From Alphaproteobacteria bacterium (GTDB taxonomy: Bacteria; Pseudomonadota; Alphaproteobacteria; RF32; CAG-239): a DNA stretch of 40,355 nt. The translations under genes and the position numbers were made by a program. This document shows positions 1 to 32,786 of the stretch, one piece after another. The notes under the pieces were generated by a model. That model worked only from the letters and a program-made list of their open reading frames with translations. It was not told where the DNA came from and did not search any database. How positions within the stretch are numbered: the first letter of the stretch is position 1; every line of letters begins with the position of its first letter. The DNA is taken from contig JBGVOY010000025.1 in assembly GCA_045126755.1 (NCBI GenBank), forward strand, positions 1 through 40,355, read 5' to 3'.

Positions 1-2420
1 GAAATCACGTTATCTAAAGATGAGACATTGCTTTTTGATAAGAAAGAGAAAAACAATATACGAGAATAATAAGTTCTAAACTTGTTTCTAATACTTTCTA
101 TCTCTTTGTTTGAGTTGATTTTATCATCTTTTTGAGGTGTATTTTTAGGTTCTTGAGGATTTTCAGGAGAATCAGGGATAGAAGGTGTTTCTAAATCTGT
201 ATCATCACCTTCTACTGCATCAATAGTAAAACCTTGATTAGAACCTAATTCACCTTGTTTTTCAATTTCTGCTTTAATTTCAGAAACATTTAAGAGAGAT
301 AAGTCAATAGGAATATCTCTTGCTTCATCAACAACACTTCTATTACTTGAATATTGGCTGATTGCACTTAAAATATCGCTTGGTTCAACCTTATTAATTT
401 TATCTTTATTTAATACAATAATAGGAGATATTCTTAAATCTTCTTCTAAACGCTCTTCTAATTTTGAATTTCCTCGTTCATCAACATTGGCATTATATAT
501 TTGTGATTTCATTTCTTGCATAACAAACAAACGATGCGGATCAAAGTCAACTAGTAAGGTTTGAGGTTTCATATTATATTTAATTTCTTCACCATCTTTA
601 TCTACTAGCTTCTTAATATATTGGTTTTGAAGACGAAAAATAGCTTGGTCATATTCTTGCGGGGATGATGTGTCTTTGAGATAAATCATTGTATCCCATT
701 GTTCAACAGTACTTCCTGTCAACATACGATTAACCGTTAGTGTTAGTGTTTTTTTGCCCTCTGCTTCATATTTTTTTATTTTATTTTTAACATCTGTAAC
801 ACTTTTATACAGATTAAATTTCTCTACTCCTGAAATATTAATTATTTCATATTCACTTAAATTTTTGAATTTACTTTTCTTGCTCTTAATTAGTTCTTCT
901 AAAGCATCACAAGAGGCACAATATGGCAAAACACAAACAATATGTTGACACATCTTACCTTGTTTTATCTTATCATAATCAAGGAAACTCAGTATGTTAT
1001 CATCTGTTTTGCTACCATCAATAACTTCAAATAATTCTAAAACTTCTTTTTCAAAAACGAATTTCTTATGGTCACCATTATCTGCTTTTTGAACTGATTT
1101 TGGTTTAAGCAATGCCGAAAACGCATAACTCACCCCTGATTGTTTTAATTCTTGTAACTTTTCTTGTGCAGATTTACTTGGATTAAAAGCAAACCTAACC
1201 ATTTGAGGAAAACCGTAGTATGGATTATCCCATTCTTTAATCTCATCAGATAAAATATGTTCTTTATCCCATTTTTCTTGTTCTTTAACTATATCTGAAA
1301 ACTGGCAAAATGAAATAATATCCTCTTTAGAAAACTCACTTCCCATCAAAATACGATATGGTGTACCGGATAAATGCAATCTGACTTTTGCTTTCAATTG
1401 CTTGATTTGCTCATCAGCTACTTCACTTTCGATATAATCATCTATATCAGCATCTGTTTTTTTCGAAGTATATTTATCCTTTACATCTTCTTCATACTTT
1501 ATTGCTTTAAGAACTTTACCATATTGTTCAGCTCTTGCTCCATAATGTGTTTCATCAACAATCAACAAATCTATTTGACTTTCAAACACTTCTTTGTGCT
1601 TTTCTTTAATTTCAGGACCTTGTAAATCCTGCAAAGTCAAAAAGATAGCAATTTTGTTGCCTTCTTGTAAAGTATTGGTTATAATATTTTCTTCTTTCAA
1701 TCGTTCACTATCTAAAAACTTATATTCTTGAAAATTATCTGCACTTTGAACTGTTTTTTTCCATTCTTCTTTAACATCAGCTTTTGCTGACACTATCAGA
1801 ACGATTTTAGCCCCTTTTGTAGCATCGGATATTGGCATCTCTTTTGCGCAACACATGGAAGTAAATGATTTACCAAAACGCATCACGGCATACATTAAGA
1901 GATTAGTACGACCATTGTTAACTGCCTTACAAAAATTATCAATTGCTTCTTGTTGATTTGGTCTTGGTTTCCAATAGCCTGTAGATTTATACTCAGTAAT
2001 AACAGGCATATTATCGTCGGTTTTATAATATTGATACTTATTTGGAACAGAGTGATAACTGTCAGTAATAACCACTATAGCTTTTTCAACATCTCGCTTT
2101 TCAGCATCTTTAAAAAATTCATTCGAATAGTAAATACCTTGTTTTATATCAGATTTTTGTAAACGAATTTTATTCAATTCTTTTTCAAGATATTGATGGA
2201 CAGCAAAATCCCTAAAAAATATTTCATTATTTACTGTTGCTTTATCTTCAAACTCTTTTTGTAAATCAGGAAAATGTTTTTTCCATTCCTTAAGTCTTTC
2301 CGAGACAGGTCTATATGTATCGCCAACTTTAAGATAATTAGGAATGGTATTTGTCTTAAAAGCATAAATATGAGGTTCAACACGACCAACAATAATCTCA
2401 TCCAAAACAGTTGTGTCCAT
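1..2420 (-). CDS. SF2 (DEAH-type) helicase-family restriction/defence enzyme with N-terminal GIY-YIG/T5orf172-like module; C-terminus lies beyond the window edge
   Basis: Minus-strand frame is open from ATG (complement of 2418-2420) to base 1, about 806 codons. It is absent from the ORF track because it is open-ended. My translation starts MDTTVLDEIIVGRVEPHIYAFKTNTIPNYLKVGDTYRPVSERLKEW (GIY-YIG/T5orf172-like). It then shows Walker A-like MRFGKSFT, DEAH box LLIVDETHYG, motif III LSGTPYR and motif VI-like QAIFRLQN. All plus-strand track ORFs here are short shadow ORFs. Confidence 0.75.
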   Translation of the reverse strand, partial: MDTTVLDEIIVGRVEPHIYAFKTNTIPNYLKVGDTYRPVSERLKEWKKHFPDLQKEFEDKATVNNEIFFRDFAVHQYLEKELNKIRLQKSDIKQGIYYSNEFFKDAEKRDVEKAIVVITDSYHSVPNKYQYYKTDDNMPVITEYKSTGYWKPRPNQQEAIDNFCKAVNNGRTNLLMYAVMRFGKSFTSMCCAKEMPISDATKGAKIVLIVSAKADVKEEWKKTVQSADNFQEYKFLDSERLKEENIITNTLQEGNKIAIFLTLQDLQGPEIKEKHKEVFESQIDLLIVDETHYGARAEQYGKVLKAIKYEEDVKDKYTSKKTDADIDDYIESEVADEQIKQLKAKVRLHLSGTPYRILMGSEFSKEDIISFCQFSDIVKEQEKWDKEHILSDEIKEWDNPYYGFPQMVRFAFNPSKSAQEKLQELKQSGVSYAFSALLKPKSVQKADNGDHKKFVFEKEVLELFEVIDGSKTDDNILSFLDYDKIKQGKMCQHIVCVLPYCASCDALEELIKSKKSKFKNLSEYEIINISGVEKFNLYKSVTDVKNKIKKYEAEGKKTLTLTVNRMLTGSTVEQWDTMIYLKDTSSPQEYDQAIFRLQNQYIKKLVDKDGEEIKYNMKPQTLLVDFDPHRLFVMQEMKSQIYNANVDERGNSKLEERLEEDLRISPIIVLNKDKINKVEPSDILSAISQYSSNRSVVDEARDIPIDLSLLNVSEIKAEIEKQGELGSNQGFTIDAVEGDDTDLETPSIPDSPENPQEPKNTPQKDDKINSNKEIESIRNKFRTYYSRILFFSFLSKSNVSSLDNVI

Positions 2421-3475
2421 TATGCTTTCTCCAACAATGACTTAAATGTTATTATTTCTTTTGCACGCCAATCTTTAATTCTGCAGTATTGAATAGTATT
2501 ATCTTTATCAAAAAATGATAATTGCTCTGTCTTTTGAGCCATATCACACATTGGAACTGTATAAGTTAAACCATCCATTTGCCATATATTCCAAGATATT
2601 ATAGTTGCAATTTCCTGTAATTGTTTTGCACTTGGTAAAATATTAAATTTAAATTTCATATTATCCATAAAGGTAAATAGTAAATTTTCTCGTGCTAACA
2701 GCAAATTATCCCCTTGATATTCAAAACCATAAATGCTCTGAAATGCACGAACTGTCCATTTATACCAGTCCTTTATATCCTCTGTATTTTCATTGACTAC
2801 ACGCAACTTTCTATCTAAAAGACCGATACGCTCTTCAATTTCAATGTATTTTCCTGTAACTGTATCATATCGACTAACTAAGTATGGAGCTTCACCGCAA
2901 GTAATTTCCATACGATTACCATCTACGTACTTTTGCCATGTGTGCTTTTTATCATTAGGAAAGACAATTTTTTCTTTTGTAGCTTGCCATTGTTTATCTT
3001 TGGTATAGTTAAAAACATCTGCTCTACCAAACCATTGCTCATCAACTAAATTATTTTGAGCATTACATATCCATGATGGTGTAAATACTTCGGCTTTCTC
3101 TCTGGTACGATTTAGTTGATTATCTCGTGATTTAGCAGCTCTTGGACGAATAATTTTATTCCTACTTCCTATAATCAAAGTCGAAAGAATTTCACAGTTT
3201 GAGCAATATGCATCACCATATTCTTCATAATCAGAAGTAGCCCATATGATATTGCGCCCCATTGTTCTATCTTTGAGTAAAGTATCAAATAACTTCTTGT
3301 TATATTGTAAAATATTTTCTTCATTAACATCTATTTGTTTTTTGATGTAAAAATCAACATATCGGCTTTTATCCACACAGCTAAGCATGGCATTATATTC
3401 ATTTTTACTAATAACGCCTTGATTTACTTTATAATTCAAACTATTTTCTAGTTGTATGTTTGTTAAATATTCCAT
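2420..3475 (-). CDS. Partner of the helicase-nuclease; gamma-class N6-adenine DNA methyltransferase-like protein (atypical, no NPPY-type motif seen)
   Basis: 351-aa ORF. It has AEVFTPSWICN (FTP motif typical of gamma-class MTases), EITCGEAPYL (resembles the SAM-binding ExxCGxGxFL motif I) and IYGFEYQGDNLLLARENL (motif II/III-like). I find no (D/N/S)PP(Y/F). The stop overlaps the downstream ATG (TAATG at 2418-2422), so the two genes are translationally coupled. Confidence 0.55.
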   Translation of the reverse strand: MEYLTNIQLENSLNYKVNQGVISKNEYNAMLSCVDKSRYVDFYIKKQIDVNEENILQYNKKLFDTLLKDRTMGRNIIWATSDYEEYGDAYCSNCEILSTLIIGSRNKIIRPRAAKSRDNQLNRTREKAEVFTPSWICNAQNNLVDEQWFGRADVFNYTKDKQWQATKEKIVFPNDKKHTWQKYVDGNRMEITCGEAPYLVSRYDTVTGKYIEIEERIGLLDRKLRVVNENTEDIKDWYKWTVRAFQSIYGFEYQGDNLLLARENLLFTFMDNMKFKFNILPSAKQLQEIATIISWNIWQMDGLTYTVPMCDMAQKTEQLSFFDKDNTIQYCRIKDWRAKEIITFKSLLEKA

Positions 3476-4775: not shown

Positions 4776-5255
4776 ATGAAATTTACAACAATATTCAATG
4801 AAGAGATAAATACTACTTGTGCTGGGTGTGTGGTTACTGATAATACAAAATTCACAGAAGGTCGGATTTATCAATCCAAATTATGGGACTTAAGTCAAGA
4901 TTTTGAAATTGCTTATCCGGGAATGGTTGTTTTATCACCAATGCGCCATGTTTCAACTTATATAGATTTAACAGAAGATGAAATTAAAGAATTAAACGTT
5001 CTGACATTTCATTGCAAAAAGGCTATTAAAAAAATATTTGATTGTGAGAATGTGGCGTATATGTTCTATGAAAAATCTAATGGTCATGTTCATTTTGTGA
5101 TTATTCCGTTGCATGGTCTAATACAGATAAAAGATAAATATTCCGTTTTGGGAGAATTGATATCTATGGCGAAAGATTTGCGCACAAACAAAGAAAATAT
5201 GACACATGTTGTCAGAGCAATTAGTGGTTTTAGAAAATACTTTAAGAACGTATAA
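4776..5255 (+). CDS. HIT (histidine triad) family nucleotide hydrolase/transferase
   Basis: 159 aa with GHVHFVIIPLH (histidine triad HxHxHxx) and an N-terminal CAGC. An AGGAAT Shine-Dalgarno-like sequence lies upstream. Confidence 0.8.
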   Translation: MKFTTIFNEEINTTCAGCVVTDNTKFTEGRIYQSKLWDLSQDFEIAYPGMVVLSPMRHVSTYIDLTEDEIKELNVLTFHCKKAIKKIFDCENVAYMFYEKSNGHVHFVIIPLHGLIQIKDKYSVLGELISMAKDLRTNKENMTHVVRAISGFRKYFKNV

Positions 5256-5459: not shown

Positions 5460-6464
5460 TTACTTTCCACTTAATATTTCAATAATTGGTAAATTTTCAT
5501 TATTTAATGTAGGGATAGGATTTTCCATTCTATCAATAATATTCTTATAGAAATTTATAAGTGTTCTTATTCTTGGTATATCTTTTGTATATCTATTAAC
5601 ATATAGATAATAACATATAGAATTATCGCATGGTATATTATCCAGGCTAACTAACCCTTGCGATGCAAAACTTAATGGCATAATTCCTATACCAGTGCTA
5701 TTTTCTATTGCATTGATTAGCGCCAAGTTATTATTTGTTTGAAAACAGATATGGGCTTGTTTTAATTTTTCTTCACCAATGGCGTGCTTTAACATATTGT
5801 TATGTTTATGTACTAATCTATGATTTTTAACCAAATCATCTAGGTCTACAGGATAACCATGCTCTGATAAATAATTAGGTGAAGCAAAAAATCCGCAATA
5901 TACTGTTTTCTTAGTTATTTCTACAATATCAAAACTATCTATCGGCTCACTACTTAATATAATATCCACATCTCTCATATTAAGTTGAGATGCATCTGTA
6001 GCTGAAATTGAATTAATTTTCAAATCAGGAAAAATATCAAATAATGCTGATAATTCATGTGGAACCATGTATGAAGCATATCCTAAAGAGATAAAAACAC
6101 GTACTTCTCCTTTTATCTCTTTATTTTCTAGTTTTATTGCTGAAATATCATCAAGTATTTCTTTAATTTTTGATGCTTTTTCAACAATGCGTTGTGCTAC
6201 ACTAGTTAAATTTGATCCTTTACCACTACTTGAAATTAACTTTACACCTAAGTATTCTTCTAAATTTTCAATATACTTACTAATTGTATCTATTGAAATA
6301 GATAATGCTTCAGATGCCTTTCTTTTTCCTGAGCATTGGTCAATTGCTTGTAAAAACAAAAGACTCTCTATCAATGATATATCTTTTTTGCTAACCATCT
6401 GTTTATTATTCCTCTGATTGGAAAATGCATTAAGGTGGTCGGAGAGTTCAGAAATCAAATGCAT
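5460..6464 (-). CDS. LysR-family transcriptional regulator
   Basis: N-terminal wHTH (LIESLLFLQAIDQCSGKRKASEALSISIDTISKYIENLEEYLGVKLI) plus a substrate-binding-domain-sized C-terminus. AAAGGA lies 8 nt upstream of the ATG at 6464. An alternative start at 6398 is possible. Confidence 0.85.
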   Translation of the reverse strand: MHLISELSDHLNAFSNQRNNKQMVSKKDISLIESLLFLQAIDQCSGKRKASEALSISIDTISKYIENLEEYLGVKLISSSGKGSNLTSVAQRIVEKASKIKEILDDISAIKLENKEIKGEVRVFISLGYASYMVPHELSALFDIFPDLKINSISATDASQLNMRDVDIILSSEPIDSFDIVEITKKTVYCGFFASPNYLSEHGYPVDLDDLVKNHRLVHKHNNMLKHAIGEEKLKQAHICFQTNNNLALINAIENSTGIGIMPLSFASQGLVSLDNIPCDNSICYYLYVNRYTKDIPRIRTLINFYKNIIDRMENPIPTLNNENLPIIEILSGK

Positions 6465-10119: not shown

Positions 10120-10149
10120 ATGATATGTTTATTGGTAAGGAGTAATTTT

Positions 10150-10845
10150 ATGGCAAATTGGATAAAAAAAATAAGAGATTTTTTCTTAAGTGATGAACCT
10201 CAGACCGAACAACAAGAATTAGTTGAAAAGCCTCAAAAAGAAAAGACATCCCCAAAAAAGAAAACACCTCAACAACAAAAAAAACGTAAGACATACACTT
10301 TTGATGATTTAGCATTTAGTTATGATAATTACTCTGTTCTTGCCGGTAGAGGTGTTAGCATAACTTCTTATTTAAGATTTGATAATGGATATTCCATGTA
10401 TGTTTCTGTGGCTAACTTCGCGAATGAAAACTTTCTTCATTCTAAAAAAGATTTTTTAGAACATGACTATCTATCTGCCTATAAAATAACTATTGAAGAC
10501 CCTAAACATTGTCGAAACAATACTTGCTTAAACGAAGATGGAGAAAGTATTTTAGCTTATAGCAAAAAAGATGTTACAAGGGTGATGAAACAAATTCAGC
10601 AATTAGATGAGAATGGGCAATTACCTAAAGTAGATACAAAAATAAAAGTTGAAGCAAGAAAAAATAATATTAAAAAAGCAAGAGATTTAAGAAAAGAGCT
10701 GGAAAAACGCAATAAAGAGGAGCGTATTTCAGGAGTTGTCATTGCTGATAATATTGCCAAGAAAATTATTTCCGGTGAAGAAAAAAGACAAATAACACCT
10801 GATGTTGTTGCAGAATATAAAAAACAAGCCTTACATAATAAATAA
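10150..10845 (+). CDS. Hypothetical protein with a Lys/Gln-rich N-terminal region
   Basis: AAGGAG (10137-10142) precedes the ATG at 10150. The track start at 10120 abuts the -10 box and is unlikely. I recognise no motif. Confidence 0.7.
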   Translation: MANWIKKIRDFFLSDEPQTEQQELVEKPQKEKTSPKKKTPQQQKKRKTYTFDDLAFSYDNYSVLAGRGVSITSYLRFDNGYSMYVSVANFANENFLHSKKDFLEHDYLSAYKITIEDPKHCRNNTCLNEDGESILAYSKKDVTRVMKQIQQLDENGQLPKVDTKIKVEARKNNIKKARDLRKELEKRNKEERISGVVIADNIAKKIISGEEKRQITPDVVAEYKKQALHNK

Positions 10846-17094: not shown

Positions 17095-18318
17095 TTATTC
17101 GCAAAAACCTCGTTTGTTGATTTCTTGCCAGAGTTCTTCATCTGCAGCATCTGTTTGTTCATTAGATTCTGCGCCACTATAGTAAGACACGCCGTTTTCA
17201 TCAACGCCTGATTTTTCGCCATACTTTTCAATCAAATCAGCATATGTGTCTTTAACAGTTTGAACGTATTCTGCAGGCAGATTACAAATTTTGGTATAAT
17301 CTTCATGTTCTTGACCACGAGTTAACAAGTTTGTAAAAGTAAGTTTACAACCATCTTCTGTTTTTTTATACTTAAAGCCTGTTTCTACTTTAACTTCACC
17401 AAATTTTTCTTTTTGAGTTCCTGATGAACCGTCTTTTTTAGCACATTTATCAATTGAAAACATCAACCTTTTTTTCATATATTTTTGTTCAAAATCATAT
17501 TGACTAAAAGTTTTATCTTGCATCATGGTTCTGATATCTGCCCATGATTGAACGTTTTCAAGTTTTTCTTTAGGAATACTGATTGTAAATGGTGTTACTT
17601 TAGCAAGGCAGTTTTCATTTTGCCACCCCAAAACATCGATAGTTTCGCTTAAGAACAAAACTTCTCTTGTTGCAGTTGCTTGTTCGCATACATGTAAAGA
17701 TTGCAAAAACTGAGGTTCAAACACATCGAATTTTTTTAGTTCTTCAAGTTTTTCTTCTTCAGATAATTCAGCTTGAATGAGCTTACATTTTTGGTTTACT
17801 TTTGCCCATTCAATATTAAACCGGTTATCTGTCATAGTGTATTTTGAAGATGCTTCTAAAACAAGATTACCTGCCTCATCTTCTGTTGTTACAAAGCCGT
17901 CAAAAGTTTCGGTAATAACCTCGTTGGTGCGATCATTCATAGCGTTTAACAAAGCTTGACGCTCTGTATCGGCAACCAAGCATTCATAAATCTGTTTGCC
18001 TAATAAACCAACTTTCATTGTAACATCAAAAGCGCATTTATCTGCTTGTTTACCTTTAATATTTACTTTAACAGCCAAATCACCACCAAACATTTCGCCT
18101 ACTTCAACAAGTTCGGGGTTATGTTTTGTAAAATCTTCCGAATAAGGAGAACAATCTGCAACAGAAGCTAAAAGTTCGTCACTAAAAGTGTATAGTTTTG
18201 GGTTTTCATTAACGCTTTTTACAACATTTTCCTCCCCCATAGAAACGCTTGCGCTAAAAGCCATACAATTTGTTGCAATAAAAGTGCTTAAACACAAAAC
18301 AGATAAAAGTTTTTTCAT
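17095..18318 (-). CDS. Secreted Cys-containing hypothetical protein
   Basis: It has a signal peptide (MKKLLSVLCLSTFIATNCMA) and eight further Cys residues. I recognise no motif. G+C is somewhat higher than in neighbouring DNA. Confidence 0.7.
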   Translation of the reverse strand: MKKLLSVLCLSTFIATNCMAFSASVSMGEENVVKSVNENPKLYTFSDELLASVADCSPYSEDFTKHNPELVEVGEMFGGDLAVKVNIKGKQADKCAFDVTMKVGLLGKQIYECLVADTERQALLNAMNDRTNEVITETFDGFVTTEDEAGNLVLEASSKYTMTDNRFNIEWAKVNQKCKLIQAELSEEEKLEELKKFDVFEPQFLQSLHVCEQATATREVLFLSETIDVLGWQNENCLAKVTPFTISIPKEKLENVQSWADIRTMMQDKTFSQYDFEQKYMKKRLMFSIDKCAKKDGSSGTQKEKFGEVKVETGFKYKKTEDGCKLTFTNLLTRGQEHEDYTKICNLPAEYVQTVKDTYADLIEKYGEKSGVDENGVSYYSGAESNEQTDAADEELWQEINKRGFCE

Positions 18319-19273: not shown

Positions 19274-19307
19274 TGAAAGTGTGTTACAATAATGAGGATA
19301 TATTTTG

Positions 19308-20102
19308 ATGTTCGGAAAATCTAAAAACCCTGATGAATTTAAAACTTGGAAAGAAGTTTATTTATACTGCTCCAAGAAAGCAAACAAAGAACAACGTCCG
19401 ATAAAAGAGGTTCTTACAAGTCTTCCTGATGACATGTTCAAAAAGTTTGTTGAGATTGTAGATGATACAGCTTATACTTGGGAAAAAGTATGGTTTGGCG
19501 AGGACGTACGCCGCCCTAAATTTGCTGCAGAAAACTTCTGTTCGCTTATTAATAGTGAAAAAGATAAAAGAAATAAACGCAAAAGAGAAGAACAATTCAA
19601 TAAAGCTCTTGAATCTTTCGGTAAAGAAGGTGGTTCAAAGATTGTCGTGCAAAAGCTTTCTTTTCATCATGAAGGTATTACTTCTACAAGACAAGGTATT
19701 TCCAAACCCGATTATGAAACTCAAGGTTATCTCATATCTTTAGAACATGAGGGCCACGGGTTTTTAATCGGTGATATTGATACATACAAAAGAGATGGCG
19801 GTTTTATTAACCCTTCCACTATGGGCGTTCAAAAAAGTAGCCAAGATTTTGTTAAAAAACACTTCAAAGAAGTTTTTGGTGTTACTGAAGTTAAAAAACC
19901 CGAAGATGAAAAAGCTGCTATTCTGGATATTCTTCATGGCAAAAAACCGGATAAAGATTTTTTACTCTACTATGTATACGAATTTATGCTCCAAGAATGT
20001 AAGAATAAAGAAAAAGAGCAAGCTCAAAAGCATATTAAAGACAACAAAATAAAAGAAAAAATCATTACAAGATTGAAAAAATCAAGAGGAAAATCATCCT
20101 AA
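19308..20102 (+). CDS. Hypothetical Lys-rich protein
   Basis: 264-aa ORF with GAGGA 9 nt upstream of the ATG at 19308. I recognise no motif. The alternative-frame track ORFs inside it are low-complexity shadows. Confidence 0.65.
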   Translation: MFGKSKNPDEFKTWKEVYLYCSKKANKEQRPIKEVLTSLPDDMFKKFVEIVDDTAYTWEKVWFGEDVRRPKFAAENFCSLINSEKDKRNKRKREEQFNKALESFGKEGGSKIVVQKLSFHHEGITSTRQGISKPDYETQGYLISLEHEGHGFLIGDIDTYKRDGGFINPSTMGVQKSSQDFVKKHFKEVFGVTEVKKPEDEKAAILDILHGKKPDKDFLLYYVYEFMLQECKNKEKEQAQKHIKDNKIKEKIITRLKKSRGKSS

Positions 20103-20685: not shown

Positions 20686-21459
20686 ATGCAAACAATTTTC
20701 GACAGAGCCGGTTTTGAGTATGCTCTCATCGCAAACTGCGCAATCACAGACGGTTTAACCAGTTATGTAACATTCAAGGAAGATGGAACTCCTGTTGTCA
20801 TCCGTAACGGACAGCCTGTTCTCTCAAGCTTTTTCACCGACGGCAACGGACGTTGGGGCAAATTGATTAACTCTACAGACCCAAAGAAAGTTGAAAAGGT
20901 CATGAAGAAGGCAGAGAATCACGTTATCGCGTTACATAACGGTGAACTTGTTTGCCAGCTTGTACCTCTTACAGGTATTGTTTGGCACGATGACATGGGA
21001 AATAAGTTCTACCTCATTTCTCGTTTCGAAAGAGAAGAGTTGGAGGCTGATAACCTTGCCTATGTAACAGCTGAAAGCGAAGGCACTTACGAAACCATAA
21101 AGTACATCGCATACAACGGAACAGAATTTATCGATGTTCCTCGTTATCTCTATAATGAGAAAAACAAGAGATTCACCGCTGGCGCTAACTTCAAGGCTAT
21201 GGCTTACGCCGAAATGCGCAGACGTGGTAATGCCTCAATCGCTGTGAAGAACGGCGCACGTAAGGTTTATGCCCGTCTGAGTGAGAAAGGCGAATATATC
21301 ATGGCACACACTCAGGGCGCTTATGAGGCTCAGAAGCTTGGCGATGAAGGTAGCTACTTTGTGGAATACTGCGACAGCACCAGTGGAGGTTGGAATGTTC
21401 CAATGGACGAGTTCCCAAAAAGATATCAGATTTATTCGCCTGTCCTCTTATGCCAATAA
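20686..21459 (+). CDS. G+C-rich foreign-looking ORF of unknown function whose last ~13 codons read out-of-frame gpt-derived sequence (chimeric 3' end)
   Basis: 257-aa ORF. Two 60-nt lines counted by hand give 26/60 (20761-20820) and 30/60 (21241-21300) G+C, against 9-20/60 in typical lines elsewhere. From 21419 onward the DNA is homologous to gpt. Confidence 0.6.
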   Translation: MQTIFDRAGFEYALIANCAITDGLTSYVTFKEDGTPVVIRNGQPVLSSFFTDGNGRWGKLINSTDPKKVEKVMKKAENHVIALHNGELVCQLVPLTGIVWHDDMGNKFYLISRFEREELEADNLAYVTAESEGTYETIKYIAYNGTEFIDVPRYLYNEKNKRFTAGANFKAMAYAEMRRRGNASIAVKNGARKVYARLSEKGEYIMAHTQGAYEAQKLGDEGSYFVEYCDSTSGGWNVPMDEFPKRYQIYSPVLLCQ

Positions 21460-28172: not shown

Positions 28173-28188
28173 ATTAAGCGTAATTTGA

Positions 28189-28219
28189 AAAAAATCCGGA
28201 TTTTCATCCGGATTTTTTT
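28189..28219. terminator. Bidirectional hairpin terminator between fadL and the radical SAM gene
   Basis: AAAAAATCCGGA-TTTTCA-TCCGGATTTTTTT. Confidence 0.8.
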
Positions 28220-28228
28220 ATGCTTATT

Positions 28229-29050
28229 CTAAAATTTCAGTTTATTTAAATGATAATCAACTAACTCTCCTCCGTAACAAACGACATTTGAAAATCCGTA
28301 ATCTAATTTTTTGGCATAAAATGTTATGGGCTTATCTGCATAAATCCATTCATATCTGTCAAAGAACTTTTCATCTTTTAACTTAAATTCAGCGCTTAAC
28401 ATCATTTTTTTTATAATTTCATCACTGTCTTTTTTGGTTAAAGCATTTTCTACAATCCATTTTGTATACGGATTTGAAAGATTATTATCTCTGGTATTTA
28501 AATTAAGTGTTTTAAGACTAACCGTTTTAATATTGGGATATGTATCCAAATATTGTTTTATTTCGCTTAAATATTCTTCAAATGATTTATTTTTAAGCAT
28601 TACATAATTTAAGCGCACATCAGCTTTTGAAAAATTTTTACAATTTAAATAATCCTGATTATATCCCAATATTTTCATATCTTTTTCAGGTGAAAAATCA
28701 ACACGCGTGATTTCAATTAAAAACTTATCTTTAATCAAATCAAGTTTTTCAGGTTCAAAGAAAATATTTCCCGATGACTGAAAGCGATATTCTTCAAACA
28801 TATCCGATGATGTAACCGTATCATAAACTTTCTTTATTGTTTCAAACGAATGCAGTGAAGGTTCTCCGTTACCGCAAAAAATGAAATACTTAAATGATAT
28901 ATTTTTTTCTTTTAAGAATTGTAAATTATATTTTAGCTTTTCAATCTTATCATCGACTAACGGCCATTTAGTGATTTTTGCCGTGCAATACGGACAATTT
29001 TTATTACACTTAAACGACGATAAAATGAGTTCAAATTCTTTATACTGCAT
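28229..29050 (-). CDS. Small radical SAM enzyme (no SPASM or other auxiliary-cluster Cys motifs)
   Basis: CNKNCPYC (CX3CX2C) at residues 15-22 and a GNGEP (GGEP-like) SAM motif. GGGAGAG Shine-Dalgarno sequence upstream. It overlaps the upstream gene by 11 nt. Confidence 0.8.
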   Translation of the reverse strand: MQYKEFELILSSFKCNKNCPYCTAKITKWPLVDDKIEKLKYNLQFLKEKNISFKYFIFCGNGEPSLHSFETIKKVYDTVTSSDMFEEYRFQSSGNIFFEPEKLDLIKDKFLIEITRVDFSPEKDMKILGYNQDYLNCKNFSKADVRLNYVMLKNKSFEEYLSEIKQYLDTYPNIKTVSLKTLNLNTRDNNLSNPYTKWIVENALTKKDSDEIIKKMMLSAEFKLKDEKFFDRYEWIYADKPITFYAKKLDYGFSNVVCYGGELVDYHLNKLKF

Positions 29051-29555
29051 AACACTCTCCCTTTAACAATTTTTTGATGATTAAACTAATTTCATCATAT
29101 TTTTGATATTTATAAACTTTGATTTTGTTACTTTTTTGCATTGCATTTGCAATAGCAAACCAATATTCAGACTTGATGGCATAATTTCCTTCTTCCTCTT
29201 TATAAAGTATAATGATTTCTTTATTTTGTTCTATTGCCCAGCCCAACTCGACAACTGTTCCTACCGAAAAGCTTTCACTGAAGACGCAGACAAAAGTCTG
29301 GCTGTTTTTAACAGCCTCAAATTCGGCATTTAACACTGTGTTGCAATCTGTTGAGGTATAATTTCCTTTTGATGCCTCTTCACAATAAAAAGGGCCCGAA
29401 TAAATAAAACTGTTATCAACAATCAAATTCGGTTGTGCAAAGGCCAAATCGGTTGCACTTCCGAGCAACAATGCTCTGTAATCGTATGACAAAGCATCCG
29501 GTAAAATTGTATTTTTGCTTTTATTAAATTTACCGCTAAAATAAACTCTTTTCAT
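29040..29555 (-). CDS. Nucleoside 2-deoxyribosyltransferase / Rcl(DNPH1)-like Rossmannoid protein
   Basis: RVYFSGKF (like the N-terminal iYlAGp motif) and SVGTVVELGWAIEQNKEIIILY (like the GT..E.G.A catalytic-Glu segment). There is a 4-nt ATGA overlap with pnuC-like. Confidence 0.65.
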   Translation of the reverse strand: MKRVYFSGKFNKSKNTILPDALSYDYRALLLGSATDLAFAQPNLIVDNSFIYSGPFYCEEASKGNYTSTDCNTVLNAEFEAVKNSQTFVCVFSESFSVGTVVELGWAIEQNKEIIILYKEEEGNYAIKSEYWFAIANAMQKSNKIKVYKYQKYDEISLIIKKLLKGECYAV

Positions 29556-30103
29556 TTCGCATAACCCTTCATTATTTTATTCCAATAAACATAAGAAATT
29601 ACAGCCAGAAATGTCCATAAAACATTTAAGCTCAATAAACAGATAGCCGTTTTTTCTAAAAATACGTATTCAATTACATAAAAAATATCGTTTACAAACC
29701 AGATAAACCAAGTATCAATTTTTCTTACAACCATATAATATGTCGCAAATAAAGATGATATGCTGGTAAATGAATCTAAAAATGGTAAGGGGTCATTGGT
29801 TTTCTTTAACAATAAAGCCCCTAAAAATGTCCCGATTAAAATCAAAAACCCGTATATAAGTCTTTCTTTACTGTTGCAAACAGATATTTTAAGTTCTTTT
29901 TTTGTGTTCCACAGAATATATCCGCTAATTCCGAAAAATACATACAAAAGAGAATTTATCGTATCTCCGTATAAGCGATTTGTATATGAAAACACCAATA
30001 AACAAGCCATTTGCAGAATATAAAACACCCAATTACTGCGTTTGTTAAAAAGCACAAAAATGCTTTGCAACAAACCAAAGGCTGTTGCCCATATTTCGAA
30101 CAT
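29552..30103 (-). CDS. pnuC: PnuC-family nucleoside-type vitamin transporter (substrate not assignable)
   Basis: About 7 TM segments. It has DPLPFLDSFTSISSLFATYYMV.RKIDTWFIWFVNDIFY, matching the PnuC PFLD...W..W..N/D signature. Confidence 0.8.
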   Translation of the reverse strand: MFEIWATAFGLLQSIFVLFNKRSNWVFYILQMACLLVFSYTNRLYGDTINSLLYVFFGISGYILWNTKKELKISVCNSKERLIYGFLILIGTFLGALLLKKTNDPLPFLDSFTSISSLFATYYMVVRKIDTWFIWFVNDIFYVIEYVFLEKTAICLLSLNVLWTFLAVISYVYWNKIMKGYAK

Positions 30104-30114
30104 ACATTAAACTC

Positions 30115-31308
30115 CTAGTCTATCGGATTATTGTCTGCATAGTTATCAAAATAGCCTTTTATCAAAATAACCGGAGTTCCTTTATCGCCCGAACCGCTGG
30201 TTAAATCGCACAGAGAACCCAATAAATCGGTAATTTTACGCGGAGTTGTGCCGATTGAATAAAAACCGTCTGCGGATTTCTTTTCCGATATTGCTTTTTT
30301 GACTGCTTCTGTAGGGTTATCTACGTTATTATCAGCCACCGCCTTTATTTTAATTTCATTTGGCATACCTTCCAAACCTTTAGTATACCCCGGAGACACG
30401 ACAGGATCGGCAAATTCCCATATTTTTGTGTTAGGACATTTAAACCCGCCATCGCCATAAATCATTACCTCTATATGTTTACCGGTCTTATCCTTCAACA
30501 TCTTTTGCAAATTGAGGCAAAATCTTTCACAATCCCTCGGAAATAATTTTAACCGGTTACTGTCAGAATAGTTTGAACCTAATAAACCAAACTCACTCCA
30601 TCCTCTGTTTTTATCGGGTAAGTTACATATTTCATCTAATGTAAACGCAGTAGCTCCTGCCTTAATTAAAATTTGCTTTTGACGATGACGAACGTGTATA
30701 CTTGAAACAATTACCTGATGAGTAAATTTTAATATGTCTTTAGGATTATTTAGCAATACAACCTCTATATTGGGCGCAATATCTTCATACATTCGAATAT
30801 GGTCTGAACCTGTTATTGGATGATGAAAAACACCAAATTTTTCACGAAAATCTTGCTTTGTAATAATATCCGTATACGGATTTATGTCCGATTCAAATAA
30901 TTTATCCTCATCCATTATGGCATTTCCCACTTCATCTGCAGGATATGAAAGGCATACATACACTTTACCGCTTACACCTTTGGCTATTCCTTCCAAAATT
31001 TTTGCAAATCTGTTTCTTGATAAGATAGGAAATGCAACCGCTACATCGCCTTGCGGAAATTTTTTTGCAACATCATTTGCAATATCTTCTATGGTAACAA
31101 AATTGCCCTGAGCTCTGGCTAAAAAAGATTCCGTTATACCGATAATATCACGATTATTTAATTGTATAGGCTGATAATCGGAGTTTTTTGCTTCAAGCAA
31201 TGTATCAACAATAATGCTTGATATATCTGCTCCTTGAGTAATAATCGGCATTCTGATACCATAAGCCGATGTTCCGACATAACGAATATTAAAATTTTTT
31301 TTATTCAT
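30115..31308 (-). CDS. CofE-like (F420-0:gamma-glutamyl ligase superfamily) protein with an extra internal region
   Basis: It has PIITQGADIS...DIIGITESFLARAQG, GLLGSNYSD, IYGDGGFKCP and LTSGSGDKGTPVILIKGY, collinear with CofE motifs as I recall them. AGGAG lies 7 nt upstream of the ATG at 31308. The track TTG start at 31338 is rejected. Confidence 0.65.
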   Translation of the reverse strand: MNKKNFNIRYVGTSAYGIRMPIITQGADISSIIVDTLLEAKNSDYQPIQLNNRDIIGITESFLARAQGNFVTIEDIANDVAKKFPQGDVAVAFPILSRNRFAKILEGIAKGVSGKVYVCLSYPADEVGNAIMDEDKLFESDINPYTDIITKQDFREKFGVFHHPITGSDHIRMYEDIAPNIEVVLLNNPKDILKFTHQVIVSSIHVRHRQKQILIKAGATAFTLDEICNLPDKNRGWSEFGLLGSNYSDSNRLKLFPRDCERFCLNLQKMLKDKTGKHIEVMIYGDGGFKCPNTKIWEFADPVVSPGYTKGLEGMPNEIKIKAVADNNVDNPTEAVKKAISEKKSADGFYSIGTTPRKITDLLGSLCDLTSGSGDKGTPVILIKGYFDNYADNNPID

Positions 31309-31402
31309 ATTTTTTCTCCTTGACAGTAGGTTAATCAACTTTGGTTTGTCTCGACTGTCCCTACAAGACCCAAACCGATAGAGAAGCTTTTTTTAACTTC
31401 TT

Positions 31403-31936
31403 CTAAAATGTTTCGTTTTCATAAAAATTTTTAATAATTAAATCAATATTTTCAGGATGAACAAGCTCTTTCCATCTGATATCTTTAAGCACAATCATAT
31501 CACGAACCATATTGCCTGACAGAAAAGGAAAATCTTGTGTTGTTCTTGAACAAAGGCCAACATTTTTAACATCTTTTGCAAAGAAAGCATATTCATTTAT
31601 GTCTCCGACATACATTATGTCCGGAGCAGTTCTGTCAGGAAGTTCTTTTTTAATTGTATTAAGCACATGTTCATTCCATGGTAAATTAACGCTGTCTTTG
31701 ACACCGATAATTCGTAAATTTGCGTATGCCTTGTTGTTTTTCCATACATTTTGCACCATTTTTTTGCGAACAAAATATGGTAGCGGATTTTTCTCGGTTC
31801 CGCTTTCTTGTGCAGATCCGATAACAACCGTTCCATACTCGCATTCTTCCATCATTGTCGTAACAAGCCTGTTATGACCGATATGAAAAGGCTGACAACG
31901 TATGATACAAAACCCATGCTTATACTTAAAACTCAT
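31403..31936 (-). CDS. nadM: Archaeal/NadM-type nicotinamide-nucleotide adenylyltransferase
   Basis: It has IIRCQPFHIGH (GRxQPFHxGH), VIGSAQES, NPLPYFVRKKM and SGNMVRDM...WKELVHPE, collinear with the M. jannaschii NMNAT pattern. Confidence 0.8.
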   Translation of the reverse strand: MSFKYKHGFCIIRCQPFHIGHNRLVTTMMEECEYGTVVIGSAQESGTEKNPLPYFVRKKMVQNVWKNNKAYANLRIIGVKDSVNLPWNEHVLNTIKKELPDRTAPDIMYVGDINEYAFFAKDVKNVGLCSRTTQDFPFLSGNMVRDMIVLKDIRWKELVHPENIDLIIKNFYENETF

Positions 31937-32050
31937 AAAAAAAACCTTTCATTCTGAAAGGCCAACACATCAACACGGATAAATCCGTTATAAGATGACC
32001 GGCCAAGTCTGTTGTTCCCACCCATTGCCCTCGAGTGCCGGAACACATCA
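31937..32050 (-). promoter_or_regulatory. Structured 5' leader with aptamer-like hairpin, competing antiterminator and intrinsic terminator that also masks the SD (candidate riboswitch, class unassigned)
   Basis: Read on the minus strand. P1 is CCGGC (32041-32037) with GCCGG (32003-31999), extended by GATG (32049-32046) with CATC (31997-31994), and encloses a G-rich 33-nt core ACTCGAGGGCAATGGGTGGGAACAACAGACTTG. A second hairpin is ACGGA-TTTA-TCCGT (31988-31975). The terminator is CCTTTC-AGAAT-GAAAGG plus T8 (31961-31937), ending at the ATG. The 9-nt repeat TGATGTGTT occurs at 32050-32042 and at 31972-31964. Confidence 0.5.
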
Positions 32051-32078
32051 AACGTATCACTTGCAAAATAATTGTCAA
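32051..32078 (-). promoter_or_regulatory. Putative sigma-70 promoter of the nadM operon
   Basis: On the minus strand: TTGACA (32078-32073), 16-nt spacer, TGaTACGTT (-10 at 32056-32051). Confidence 0.55.
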
Positions 32079-32126: not shown

Positions 32127-32786
32127 CTATCCCTCAACAATAGCTACACCGGCGCTTGTGCCTAAGCTTGTTGCTCCTGCTTTTATCATTTCAATAGCAG
32201 TATTCTTATCTCTGATACCGCCCGAAGCCTTTACCTTAACATTAAATGGCGAAACCGTGTCGGCCATTAGCTTAACATCTTCAACCTTTGCCCCTACCCC
32301 GTTCTTTACAAAACCGGTAGATGTTTTAACAAAGTCTGCTTTTGCTTCAACGCAAATTTCACAAGCCTTTTTAATTTCTTCTTTAGTTAATAAATCTGTT
32401 TCTAAGATAACTTTTAGCACATTATTGGGGCAAGCTTCTTTAACCGTTTTAATATCTTCTTTTACAAAATCCCAATTATTATCCTTAATTGCCGAAACAT
32501 TTATCACCATATCTACTTCATCTGCGCCGTCTTCAATAGCTGACTTTGCTTCATAAGCTTTAACTTTGCTGATATTTGCTCCTAAAGGAAAACCTATAAC
32601 CGTTACAATTTTAACATCTGTTTCTTTTAAGAACTCTTTTGCTTGCTTAACGTAAGCCGGATTGACGCACACTCCTCTAAATCCGTATTTTTTAGCTTCA
32701 GAATAGAGTTTTTCAAACTCTTGTGCGGTTGCATTTTGTTTTAAGAGTGTATGTTCAACATATTTAGCTAAATTTTGCATATTCAT
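32127..32786 (-). CDS. deoC: Deoxyribose-phosphate aldolase
   Basis: It has VCVNPAYV, VIGFPLGAN, DEVDMVIN, DFVKTSTGF and VKASGGIR, collinear with B. subtilis Dra/DeoC. Confidence 0.9.
   Translation of the reverse strand: MNMQNLAKYVEHTLLKQNATAQEFEKLYSEAKKYGFRGVCVNPAYVKQAKEFLKETDVKIVTVIGFPLGANISKVKAYEAKSAIEDGADEVDMVINVSAIKDNNWDFVKEDIKTVKEACPNNVLKVILETDLLTKEEIKKACEICVEAKADFVKTSTGFVKNGVGAKVEDVKLMADTVSPFNVKVKASGGIRDKNTAIEMIKAGATSLGTSAGVAIVEG

Follow-up and report, generated by a model that had tools for sequence, protein, structure and literature searches.

Which pathway is served by five tightly packed genes that encode, in order of transcription, a NadM-like nucleotidyltransferase, a CofE-like protein, a PnuC-like transporter, an NDT-like putative N-glycosidase and a small radical S-adenosylmethionine enzyme (rSAM)? 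The genes lie on the minus strand of contig JBGVOY010000025.1 (assembly GCA_045126755.1) of an alphaproteobacterium of the lineage RF32; CAG-239, and the whole stretch of DNA that was analysed, 40,355 nucleotides (nt) in length, is called the window below. The locus is one transcription unit that joins two gene modules. The reading we favour, at a probability of about 0.4, is that the operon, under the control of its leader, salvages a vitamin-like nucleoside, most probably a pyridine nucleoside of the nicotinamide riboside (NR) type linked to nicotinamide adenine dinucleotide (NAD). An initial annotation, made from the sequence alone, had proposed an undescribed pathway of nucleoside or cofactor salvage and modification; NrtR-type regulators and a Preiss-Handler cluster next to the CofE-like gene favour NAD metabolism over generic nucleoside modification. 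The searchable literature held no published description of combinations of CofE-like, PnuC, NDT-like and rSAM genes, of DUF5662, or of CofE together with NAD, and no characterised pathway includes the CofE-like, NDT-like or rSAM gene, as had been supposed when they were set outside the textbook routes.

The five genes stand exactly where the initial annotation had placed them. The NDT-like and rSAM genes overlap by 11 nt and the PnuC-like and NDT-like genes by 4 nt, and gaps of 11 nt and 94 nt separate CofE-like from PnuC-like and NadM-like from CofE-like, respectively (Table 1). A TTG at 31338 would extend the CofE-like protein to 407 amino acids (aa), and its homologs have 394-400 aa. The single promoter, structured leader and strong terminator read around the genes were recovered as a TTGACA box, covarying hairpins and a 14-bp terminator stem. 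This box is kept in 17 distinct leaders of related loci, about 35-40 nt upstream of the leader hairpin P1, and was not flagged by a simple promoter scan of the window because the -10 element is weak there; the terminator lies between the end of the rSAM gene and a convergent fadL-like gene. In Pfam and NCBIfam searches the superfamily calls held for all five proteins: the PnuC-like protein alone passed a curated cutoff, the CofE-like protein passed the broad Pfam model only, and the NadM-like protein, the NDT-like protein and the rSAM scored under curated cutoffs.

Table 1. Coordinates of the operon, its leader and adjoining features in the window.
Feature	Position	Strand	Length	Description
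NadM-like gene	31403-31936	minus	177 aa	NadM-family (archaeal-type NMNAT-like) nucleotidyltransferase; Pfam CTP_transf_like, 27.9 bits
CofE-like gene	30115-31308	minus	397 aa, counted from ATG	Divergent CofE-superfamily protein; Pfam PF01996, 167.5 bits, E 4e-49
PnuC-like gene	29552-30103	minus	183 aa	PnuC-family nucleoside facilitator; Pfam PF04973, 112.7 bits vs 27.3
NDT-like gene	29040-29555	minus	171 aa	NDT/Rcl-superfamily protein; PDB 4JEN (BcmB), E 2e-6
rSAM gene	28229-29050	minus	273 aa	Radical SAM enzyme, rare uncharacterised family; C15-x3-C19-x2-C22; GNGEP motif
-35 box of operon promoter	32073-32078	minus		TTGACA, sequence read
Aptamer-like part of leader	31994-32044	minus		Covariance model R1, 72.5 bits
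P1 hairpin	32044-32014	minus		Invariant GG bulge, AGGGCWA loop
P2a small hairpin	~32009-31997	minus		UUGGCC in loop
Expression platform	31937-31993	minus		Variable hairpin, then intrinsic terminator
Leader intrinsic terminator	stem 31963-31943, then U-run	minus		Terminator scan; right before ATG at 31936
Bidirectional intrinsic terminator	28188-28219	.		14-bp stem, A/T runs on both sides; terminator scan
deoC	32127-32786			TIGR00126, 278 bits

The distribution of the genes across genomes separates them into two groups. A survey anchored on the rSAM fetched 24 species-representative genome loci, all from animal-gut metagenome-assembled genomes (MAGs) that carry their depositors' own labels of Alphaproteobacteria, Ca. 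Enterousia, 'Bacilli' or 'Clostridia'; loci are designated L below. The PnuC-like, NDT-like and rSAM genes (module B, the triad) were found together in 24/24 of these loci, and NadM-like and CofE-like genes (module A) lay upstream of the triad in 8 of the 24, plus L013 with a remnant of CofE. All five genes occur in the same order in at least nine related species-level genomes plus metagenome contigs; where both modules are present, a DUF5662-like gene usually stands between CofE and PnuC as well. The co-occurrence expected of related genomes was seen, but not as that of an indivisible unit, for the triad is constant and the NadM/CofE pair separable. The triad also occurs in the order PnuC-rSAM-NDT on a 416-kb IMG/VR viral contig (L046) and, in a diverged version with NDT and rSAM fused, in L047. 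L034 has module A and no triad; so do L038 and L040, where a short open reading frame (ORF) is all that is left of NadM. The leader is present in all three. Partners are exchanged between modules in L041, which has the order CofE-DUF5662-PnuC. Two modules, each mobile on its own, are fused in the operon.

In L013 (5705-5905) a 70-residue CofE-like remnant stands between NadM-like and PnuC-like genes while the leader and the other genes are intact, and the CofE-like gene is therefore dispensable in at least one lineage; L038 and L040 are the converse, having kept leader and CofE-like gene with the decayed NadM-like ORF. No relative of the rSAM or the NDT-like protein was found in GenBank phages and plasmids, further scans of viral contigs found only the same 416-kb contig again, and comparison with PHROGs gave generic names only. 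Some depositors' labels disagree with what the loci hold. L008, labelled 'Candidatus Gastranaerophilales', agrees with L009 and L012, both labelled Alphaproteobacteria, in its six genes and their order and in the identities of its proteins to those of the window, and its leader is almost the same as theirs; the record titles of L008, L011, L014 and L019 all give a MAG taxon label that conflicts with locus content, which suggests binning or labelling errors in public MAGs.

These distributions bear directly on the simplest account, that the locus is plain PnuC/NadM salvage of NR, with the CofE-like, NDT-like and rSAM genes beside it by chance, the case that the initial annotation had itself set against its proposal. 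PnuC and a NadM-like protein alone do fit the known paradigm (PMC13464706, PMC2330246), but this account is contradicted by the 24/24 co-occurrence of NDT-like and rSAM genes with PnuC-like genes, across phyla and on a viral contig, and by the fusion of NDT and rSAM elsewhere. The translational overlaps of 4 and 11 nt, the CofE-like gene that follows NadM-like under the leader in many genomes and the lack of an NR kinase speak against it as well, and we regard it as extremely improbable.

We then considered what ties module A to NAD. The NadM-like protein carries QPFHIGH at residues 15-21, of the (H/T)xGH type, and LSGNMVRD near residue 140, of the SxxxxR type, and both nucleotidyltransferase motifs align with a homolog in L041. 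It matches NMN adenylyltransferases (NMNATs; NMN, nicotinamide mononucleotide) of the PDB at E 4e-6 and NCBIfam NMNAT models at E 1.6e-14, under cutoff. Family, motifs and NAD context uphold the earlier call of a NadM adenylyltransferase; the scores below the curated NMNAT cutoffs do not, and the activity is predicted. Its relative in L041 (34% identity, E 4e-23) is the adenylyltransferase X inside a pncA-X-pncB-nadE cluster. In L039 and in L041/42 the CofE-like gene abuts such a Preiss-Handler cluster (pncA-NadM'-pncB-nadE), whose NadE and PncB score above curated cutoffs and which is accompanied by a divergent Nudix-NrtR. Module A is tied to NAD salvage by genomic context.

A regulator of the same kind accompanies the triad. 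Just downstream in 9 triad loci lies a gene for a 241-aa winged-helix protein of NrtR type (E 1e-14). Near-perfect palindromes flank or overlap the TTGACA -35 box of the PnuC-like promoter in L017 (~560-700), L027, L011 (~5760-5930), L014 and L019, for example TTACATATGGTAT-AAA-ATACCATATGTAA with a second site TTATGGTA-AAAAA-TACCATAA, and a different palindrome, TACACTTTTAGTGTA, occurs in L015 and L014; the NrtR-like protein encoded at these loci probably uses these palindromes as operators. By far most NrtR regulons concern NAD, and some control pentose or phosphoribosyl pyrophosphate metabolism (PMC2330246). The genes nrtX and nrtY of that paper are unrelated.

The window has no recognisable ribosylnicotinamide kinase (RNK) among its proteins in Pfam and NCBIfam searches, as the initial annotation had noted, and neither NadR nor an RNK domain was found in the window or the loci surveyed. 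A protein of ~300 aa with an EGTDxxGKT P-loop follows or precedes the NDT/rSAM pair in 10 triad loci and in L047. It gave weak matches to P-loop kinases (E ~0.02-0.003), and we tentatively call it a kinase. A CYTH N-terminus, read by eye from an ERKF motif, was not supported by BLASTP against a Pfam-called CYTH protein. None of the 10 triad loci with this partner, nor L047, carries NadM/CofE; among the loci compared, the P-loop partner and the NadM/CofE pair were never found together. Because the NR kinase is missing and the two distributions are complementary, the CofE-like protein is a candidate for the missing step dependent on a nucleoside triphosphate (NTP), for example NR to NMN, a proposal drawn purely from the complementary distribution.

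The name that databases would give this protein is misleading. Its PF01996 match stretches residues 27-395 over a 218-position model, and the curated models TIGR01916 and NF009809 scored 37.6 and 40.9 bits, where their cutoffs are 180.65 and 274, and aligned N- and C-terminal stubs only. The family profile reached CofE structures at E ~0.03 only, by way of three short motifs, and a single-sequence PDB search gave nothing useful. In the profile alignment to 2G9I/2PHN, Asp109 corresponds to an invariant Leu243, Glu208 to an invariant Ser373 and Asp150 perhaps to Asp286; in Archaeoglobus fulgidus CofE we take Asp109, Asp150/Thr151 and Glu208 to be metal/GTP ligands. With the equivalog cutoffs failed and two putative metal ligands replaced, we rejected a true F420 ligase, and the 'CofE ligase' label proved an over-annotation. 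The remark that other F420 genes are lacking proved right, since no cofC, cofD or fbiC was found in the window or in ~20 CofE-like loci. Clostridial orthologs are ~55% identical.

We next examined the leader that precedes module A. Wherever the conserved blocks TCGAGGGCWATGGG and AGACTTGGCC stand together, a NadM-like gene follows, or its remnant and then CofE-like. Across 14 distinct sequences both partners have changed in 7 of the 11 base pairs of P1, which is 99.4% paired, and in 3 of the 3 of P2a; 0/500 shuffles reached the observed score and every slid control collapsed. An RNAalifold consensus of 11 full leaders retained P1 and the terminator. The covariance model R1 found one copy per NadM/CofE locus, at 52-79 bits, and nothing above 13 bits elsewhere (542 kb); neither the clostridial CofE-like genes nor the PnuC genes of triad-only loci are preceded by one, and a DNA-pattern scan of metagenomes added 4 copies only. 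Rfam 15, which includes NAD+-I and NAD+-II, gave no match at gathering score for the leader in the window or in 19 loci, and the leader alone gave no relevant Rfam match at E<=10. The leader is a real structured RNA, beyond chance, and belongs to the NadM/CofE module and not to the transporter triad. The earlier claim that a structured leader controls the five genes thus stands as to the leader, but its conservation is with module A only.

The leader has the generic architecture of a riboswitch, a covarying and conserved aptamer followed by an expression platform, with ligand binding putative. The 3' arm of its terminator contains the ribosome-binding site GAAAGG, and in the minimum-energy fold of the single sequence a conserved upstream GGCC pairs with the 5' GGCC of the terminator, as an anti-terminator would. 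The GGC of the P1 loop is complementary to the GCC of the P2a loop, and the diverged leader of L034 changes both loops together (GAC with GUC), one compensatory event. The most economical reading is an OFF riboswitch. Without ligand, pairing of the upstream GGCC with the 5' arm of the terminator would allow readthrough; an end-product-type ligand, plausibly NAD-related, would stabilise the contact between the P1 and P2a loops, by which the terminator would be freed, the ribosome-binding site hidden and the operon turned off. Leader and NrtR-like gene are mutually exclusive in the loci compared, those with one lacking the other, and where a genome lacks the leader, its role would fall to an NrtR-family repressor that acts at palindromic operators.

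Two other regulatory elements were seen near CofE-like genes. The only riboswitch that the Rfam scans returned, a preQ1-I element of Clostridium niameyense (L004:4351-4394, 41 bits), precedes an energy-coupling factor (ECF) S-component gene and a gene for 229 aa and lies 3.5 kb upstream of a stand-alone CofE-like gene; it controls a different transporter gene and is probably unrelated to CofE-like. In L039 (~4940-4990) and L041 (~4950-4995), where CofE-like genes have no leader motif, another conserved GC-rich hairpin with a T-run, AAGCTCTC...GGGGGGCTTTTTATATTTT, lies just upstream of the ribosome-binding site and could either be a separate regulatory element or terminate the preceding unit.

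The triad opens with the transporter, which exceeds the cutoff of TIGR01528 (59.9 vs 42.45 bits) and aligns over residues 6-181 with 4QTN, an NR transporter of solved structure, at E 8e-10. Context (NrtR-like regulators and NadM) suggests that it may prefer NR to the thiamin, riboflavin or deoxynucleosides of PnuT, PnuX and PnuN. Directly before the PnuC-like gene, a conserved gene for a lipoprotein-like protein of ~90 aa, which may be a substrate-capture component, was seen in alphaproteobacterial triad-only loci (L018:5631-5903, L022:891-1163, L028:5564-5890); the window has no copy.

The NDT-like protein looks, from its sequence and its structural model (predicted local distance difference test, pLDDT, 85), like a nucleotide N-glycosidase or base-exchange enzyme. 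The best Foldseek matches of the model were BcmB, MilB, NDT, DNPH1 and BlsM (E 3e-6 to 2e-3; template-modelling score, TM, of the target <=0.77). The window protein scores 21.6 bits against PF05014, under the gathering cutoff of 28.8, and many family members carry a precomputed match to that model. Tyr5, Glu78, Glu103 and Ser129 are invariant in the family and Ser97 is at least 90% conserved; the invariant Glu103 lies in FSVGTVVELGWA, which aligns with the BcmB motif. From alignment to Rcl and NDT sequences, we take Glu103 to correspond to Rcl Glu93 and NDT Glu98, Tyr5 to Rcl Tyr13 and NDT Tyr7, and Glu78 to Rcl Asp69 and NDT Asp72, and provisionally Ser97 and Ser129 to the phosphate-binding Ser87 and Ser117 of Rcl. 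The match to 4JEN, the Foldseek neighbours and the aligned catalytic residues support the initial assignment to an Rcl/DNPH1-like family.

The same residues are the starting point of the strongest competing explanation, that the triad serves deoxynucleoside salvage or sanitation: a PnuN-type importer, an Rcl/DNPH1-type N-glycosidase of deoxynucleoside monophosphates (dNMPs) or a phosphodeoxyribosyl-transferase, and a deoxynucleotide rSAM, merely co-transcribed with the NAD-related pair. Tyr5, Glu78, Glu103 and the two phosphate-binding Ser align with Rcl and NDT, and a Tyr at the first position reportedly marks 2'-deoxy specificity in the work on MilB and BcmB. The EGTDxxGKT motif of the P-loop partner is typical of kinases of dNMPs or thymidine monophosphate, fusions of the rSAM family to (deoxy)cytidine monophosphate kinases exist, and the triad is carried by phage. 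Hypoxanthine/xanthine housecleaning genes also lie near both modules: Ham1/RdgB adjoins the triad in 8 loci (L011:10038-10601 and 7 others) and CofE-like in L040 (1907-2494), endonuclease V (EndoV) stands beside the NDT/rSAM fusion in L047 (6728-7405), and L045 holds a MazG-like gene. The presence of such genes near both modules in different phyla may be functional or may reflect conserved housekeeping synteny. A subfamily of deoxynucleoside transporters, PnuN, exists within the PnuC family (PMC7749635). On the other side, known deoxynucleoside salvage routes need no rSAM, a rare module regulated like a vitamin pathway would be unusual for bulk supply of deoxynucleoside triphosphates, and the Tyr/Phe specificity rule is putative for this protein; the NrtR-family regulators favour NAD, as does the joining of the triad to NadM in one operon. 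We consider this explanation unlikely, though a genuine contender.

It would also give a role to deoC, which adjoins the operon in the window and whose product could consume released deoxyribose-5-phosphate. The gene, however, sits upstream of the operon promoter, outside the transcription unit, and adjoins the module genes in no other locus of the 24-locus survey; the functional link to deoC that the initial annotation had drawn was rejected for this want of conservation. Beyond it the operon has the base composition of its surroundings, and the rest of the window is an ordinary alphaproteobacterial chromosome (sigma factor, LysR, ArgRS, FtsK, Aas, FadL, AlgH) in which no other NAD gene was recognised. 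Five window ORFs of 241-407 aa have no Pfam match at E<=1e-4 (2420-3475, 10120-10845, 17095-18318, 19305-20102 and 20686-21459).

The remaining member of the triad belongs to a tiny family, with 263 matches in a word-indexed search and 106 representatives among 1.84 billion in an exhaustive profile search. The blocks C15-N-K-N-C19-P-Y-C22 and G60-N-G-E-P64 are invariant, and the window protein scores 25.6 bits against the radical SAM model of Pfam, just under its cutoff of 29.5. A single-sequence PDB search gave nothing useful. The AlphaFold model (pLDDT 89) is a partial TIM barrel, and its Foldseek neighbours act on nucleotides or nucleosides: MoaA, viperin-like enzymes and BlsE are rSAMs that attack the sugar of a nucleotide or nucleoside. 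TM values were 0.46-0.62 (0.50-0.62 for MoaA and viperin-like enzymes) at 13-20% identity, with 0.62 and 14% for MoaA and ~0.55 for viperin-like enzymes; judged from the model, the resemblance is at superfamily level. The MoaA model of NCBIfam did not match the window rSAM, and only Cys15, Cys19 and Cys22 are invariant in the family, so a MoaA-type second cluster is lacking.

Fusions link the rSAM to nucleotide enzymes. Among metagenomic proteins, P0362 and P0365 are NDT::rSAM fusions and P0373 and P0374 rSAM::NDT fusions, and the distant relatives P0402 and P0403 (32-33% identity) have an N-terminal cytidylate-kinase domain. These NDT/rSAM and cytidylate-kinase fusions and the P-loop partner argue for a phosphorylated nucleoside as the substrate of the NDT-like/rSAM pair, with the PnuC-like protein as its route of entry. 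In a pig-gut metagenome (L043:4665-9764, also L044) a cytidylate-kinase::rSAM fusion that shares 33% identity with the rSAM of the window stands with genes for a CYTH protein, a second small rSAM, a LysR regulator, an Apyc1-like hydrolase of the metallo-beta-lactamase fold and a 191-aa protein that is CYTH-like by eye; this set is possibly a nucleotide-based conflict or signalling system. L045 (1-12002), which looks phage-like, encodes the 654-aa P0373 (an N-terminal domain of unknown type, rSAM and NDT-like) among small same-strand ORFs without Pfam matches.

Such contexts, with CYTH, a second rSAM and an Apyc1-like hydrolase or on phage-like DNA, would suit an rSAM that is a viperin-like nucleotide dehydratase and that, together with kinase, glycosidase and transporter, makes, processes or exports a modified nucleotide or nucleoside, such as an antiviral, an antimetabolite or a precursor of a modified base. 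Viperin-like enzymes and BlsE are among the fold neighbours, the cytidylate-kinase fusions recall viperin and CMPK2, P0373 has a weak pVip match in PADLOC, and BlsM/BlsE and MilB are a precedent for glycosidase and rSAM in nucleoside antibiotic synthesis. Yet no window protein had a defence match in PADLOC, pVip included, and the viperin model NF038283 gave 15.4 bits against a cutoff of 180. The surroundings are those of an ordinary chromosome in reduced gut genomes, regulation by leader RNA or NrtR-like repressor is of the vitamin style, the transporter is of importer type, and no glycosyltransferase or tailoring genes are present; we hold this explanation quite improbable. As to the enzymes of viperin or QueE size with which the initial annotation had compared the rSAM at pattern level, viperin-like enzymes are among the nearest folds, the viperin model failed, and NCBIfam models of the que family matched no window protein.

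Salvage of the base from another modified nucleoside, with the NAD-like neighbours unrelated, was considered by analogy with queuosine, in whose salvage the hydrolase QueK acts with the rSAM lyase QueL. The logic of transporter, glycosidase and small rSAM in auxotrophic gut bacteria is the same, and a flux on the vitamin scale suits a SAM-consuming enzyme. No tgt or que gene was found in any locus, the que models were negative as stated above, regulators and partners are of NAD type, and the preQ1 riboswitch of L004 controls another transporter, which together make this alternative very unlikely.

Under the NAD-type salvage that we favour, the PnuC-like facilitator would admit the nucleoside and phosphorylation would trap it. 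In Firmicutes-type loci the co-encoded P-loop protein would do so; in operons of the window type, where it is missing, the CofE-like candidate would supply the NTP-dependent step. The NadM-like protein would adenylylate the mononucleotide to a dinucleotide. The rSAM would abstract a hydrogen from the sugar of the phosphorylated nucleotide, in chemistry of the MoaA/viperin type, and the fused or adjacent Rcl-type enzyme would then cleave or exchange the base on the 5'-phosphorylated product, so that, from a nucleoside in damaged or non-standard form, the pair would yield a base or nucleotide that the cell can use.

Several points weigh against this scheme. Its mechanism is inferred as a whole, and the enzyme and transport functions are predicted. 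The NadM-like protein scores 53.9 bits against 127 and 46.8 against 181 with the archaeal NMNAT models TIGR01527 and NF002243; the adjacency to NAD clusters comes from one lineage, L039 and L041 being related; and clostridial CofE-like genes stand alone without NAD neighbours, while the kinase idea for their product comes purely from complementary distribution. The NDT-like Tyr presumably occupies the deoxy-specificity position of MilB and BcmB; the Ham1, EndoV and MazG-like neighbours fit deoxynucleotide handling; and an N-glycosidase that acts on NMN would be counter-productive. The leader may alternatively be a protein-binding element, and its loop-loop contact has a single compensatory event. 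Known NR salvage, moreover, needs no glycosidase or rSAM (NARP3, PMC13464706), and the PnuC family also carries thiamin, riboflavin and deoxynucleosides (PMC7749635).

Should the leader bind a metabolite, it would be a new riboswitch class and its ligand would name the pathway it governs. Should the CofE-like protein work in NAD salvage, it may fill the long-standing gap in NR phosphorylation of PnuC-positive, NadR-negative bacteria; re-annotation would be needed for thousands of 'coenzyme F420-0:L-glutamate ligase' proteins in organisms without F420 (Clostridia, gut Alphaproteobacteria). The glycosidase/rSAM pair is common to uncultured gut Alphaproteobacteria, Firmicutes-type MAGs and a giant phage, and its substrate would reveal a nucleoside scavenged by auxotrophic gut bacteria and probably a new radical reaction on nucleotides. 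Three novelties may hold jointly: a riboswitch class for an NAD-related metabolite (a third of NAD type); an as yet undescribed radical-assisted conversion of a phosphorylated nucleoside by glycosidase and rSAM, often one fused protein, which would define a new salvage route common to reduced-genome gut bacteria and a jumbo phage; and a CofE-like enzyme of the NAD pathway. We hold this combination unlikely, though a real chance.

The overall kind of system, a transporter with conversion enzymes under a riboswitch or repressor, is familiar; its components, an rSAM family without a characterised member, its obligate Rcl-like partner, a mis-named CofE-like protein, DUF5662 and an RNA absent from Rfam, are not. 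Known salvage of NR combines PnuC with NadR, which supplies both kinase and NMNAT (PMC13464706, PMC6593275). Like the salvage systems of phage NARP3 (PMC13464706) and of NrtR regulons (PMC2330246), the locus pairs a PnuC-family facilitator with an NMNAT-type adenylyltransferase, has NAD-style NrtR-family repressors in sister loci, and is mobile and occasionally phage-borne. It differs in having neither NadR nor an RNK domain, in the added divergent CofE-superfamily protein and DUF5662, in control by an RNA leader, and in the invariant Rcl-type N-glycosidase and rSAM partners of the triad's PnuC-like protein. Deoxynucleoside salvage by PnuN and NDT in lactobacilli (PnuN cited in PMC7749635) likewise joins a PnuC-family transporter to an NDT-superfamily enzyme, but the NDT-like protein resembles a glycosidase of nucleotides (5'-phosphate) and is coupled to an rSAM, and the triad is regulated by NrtR-like proteins or a leader RNA, not by NrdR.

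Like the NAD+-II riboswitch (pnuC motif, PMC7749635) and NAD+-I (nadA motif), the leader is a short element of the 5' untranslated region before NAD-salvage or pnuC operons, with a bulged hairpin and a long-range loop contact that competes with the expression platform. It has no sequence or structure match to either by Rfam cmscan at E<=10, and is distinguished by two hairpins with complementary loops, the GG bulge, the AGGGCWA loop, a terminator-type platform and its occurrence in gut Alphaproteobacteria. With CofE/FbiB, the F420-0:gamma-glutamyl ligase, the CofE-like protein shares PF01996 and three collinear motifs, but at 397 aa against ~250 aa it has ~150 aa of insertions, fails the equivalog cutoffs and has Leu and Ser at the positions of Asp109 and Glu208; F420 genes are lacking nearby, and the protein occurs in NAD-gene contexts and in non-F420 Clostridia.

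The fold of the NDT-like protein is common to DNPH1/Rcl, MilB, BcmB, BlsM and the NDTs (Foldseek E 3e-6 to 1e-4), and the protein shares with these enzymes the motif of the catalytic Glu, xSxGTxxELGWA, as well as the Tyr near the N-terminus, an acidic residue and two Ser that align with the phosphate binders of Rcl. It is only 13-19% identical to these enzymes and under cutoff for PF05014, and, unlike them, it has an invariant block of its own, GPFYCE.AS.G..TSTDC, and is always paired or fused with an rSAM. MoaA and viperin/pVip, finally, are the nearest structural neighbours of the rSAM, which is likewise a partial TIM barrel with CX3CX2C, and nucleotide kinases are joined to its relatives or encoded next to them, in the manner of viperin and CMPK2. 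At 13-20% identity and TM 0.50-0.62, without the second cluster of MoaA and with viperin models failed, it stands apart from both, and it is marked off from MoaA and viperin by a distinct, conserved, beta-rich C-terminal domain (FFDRYEW...YGGELVDY).

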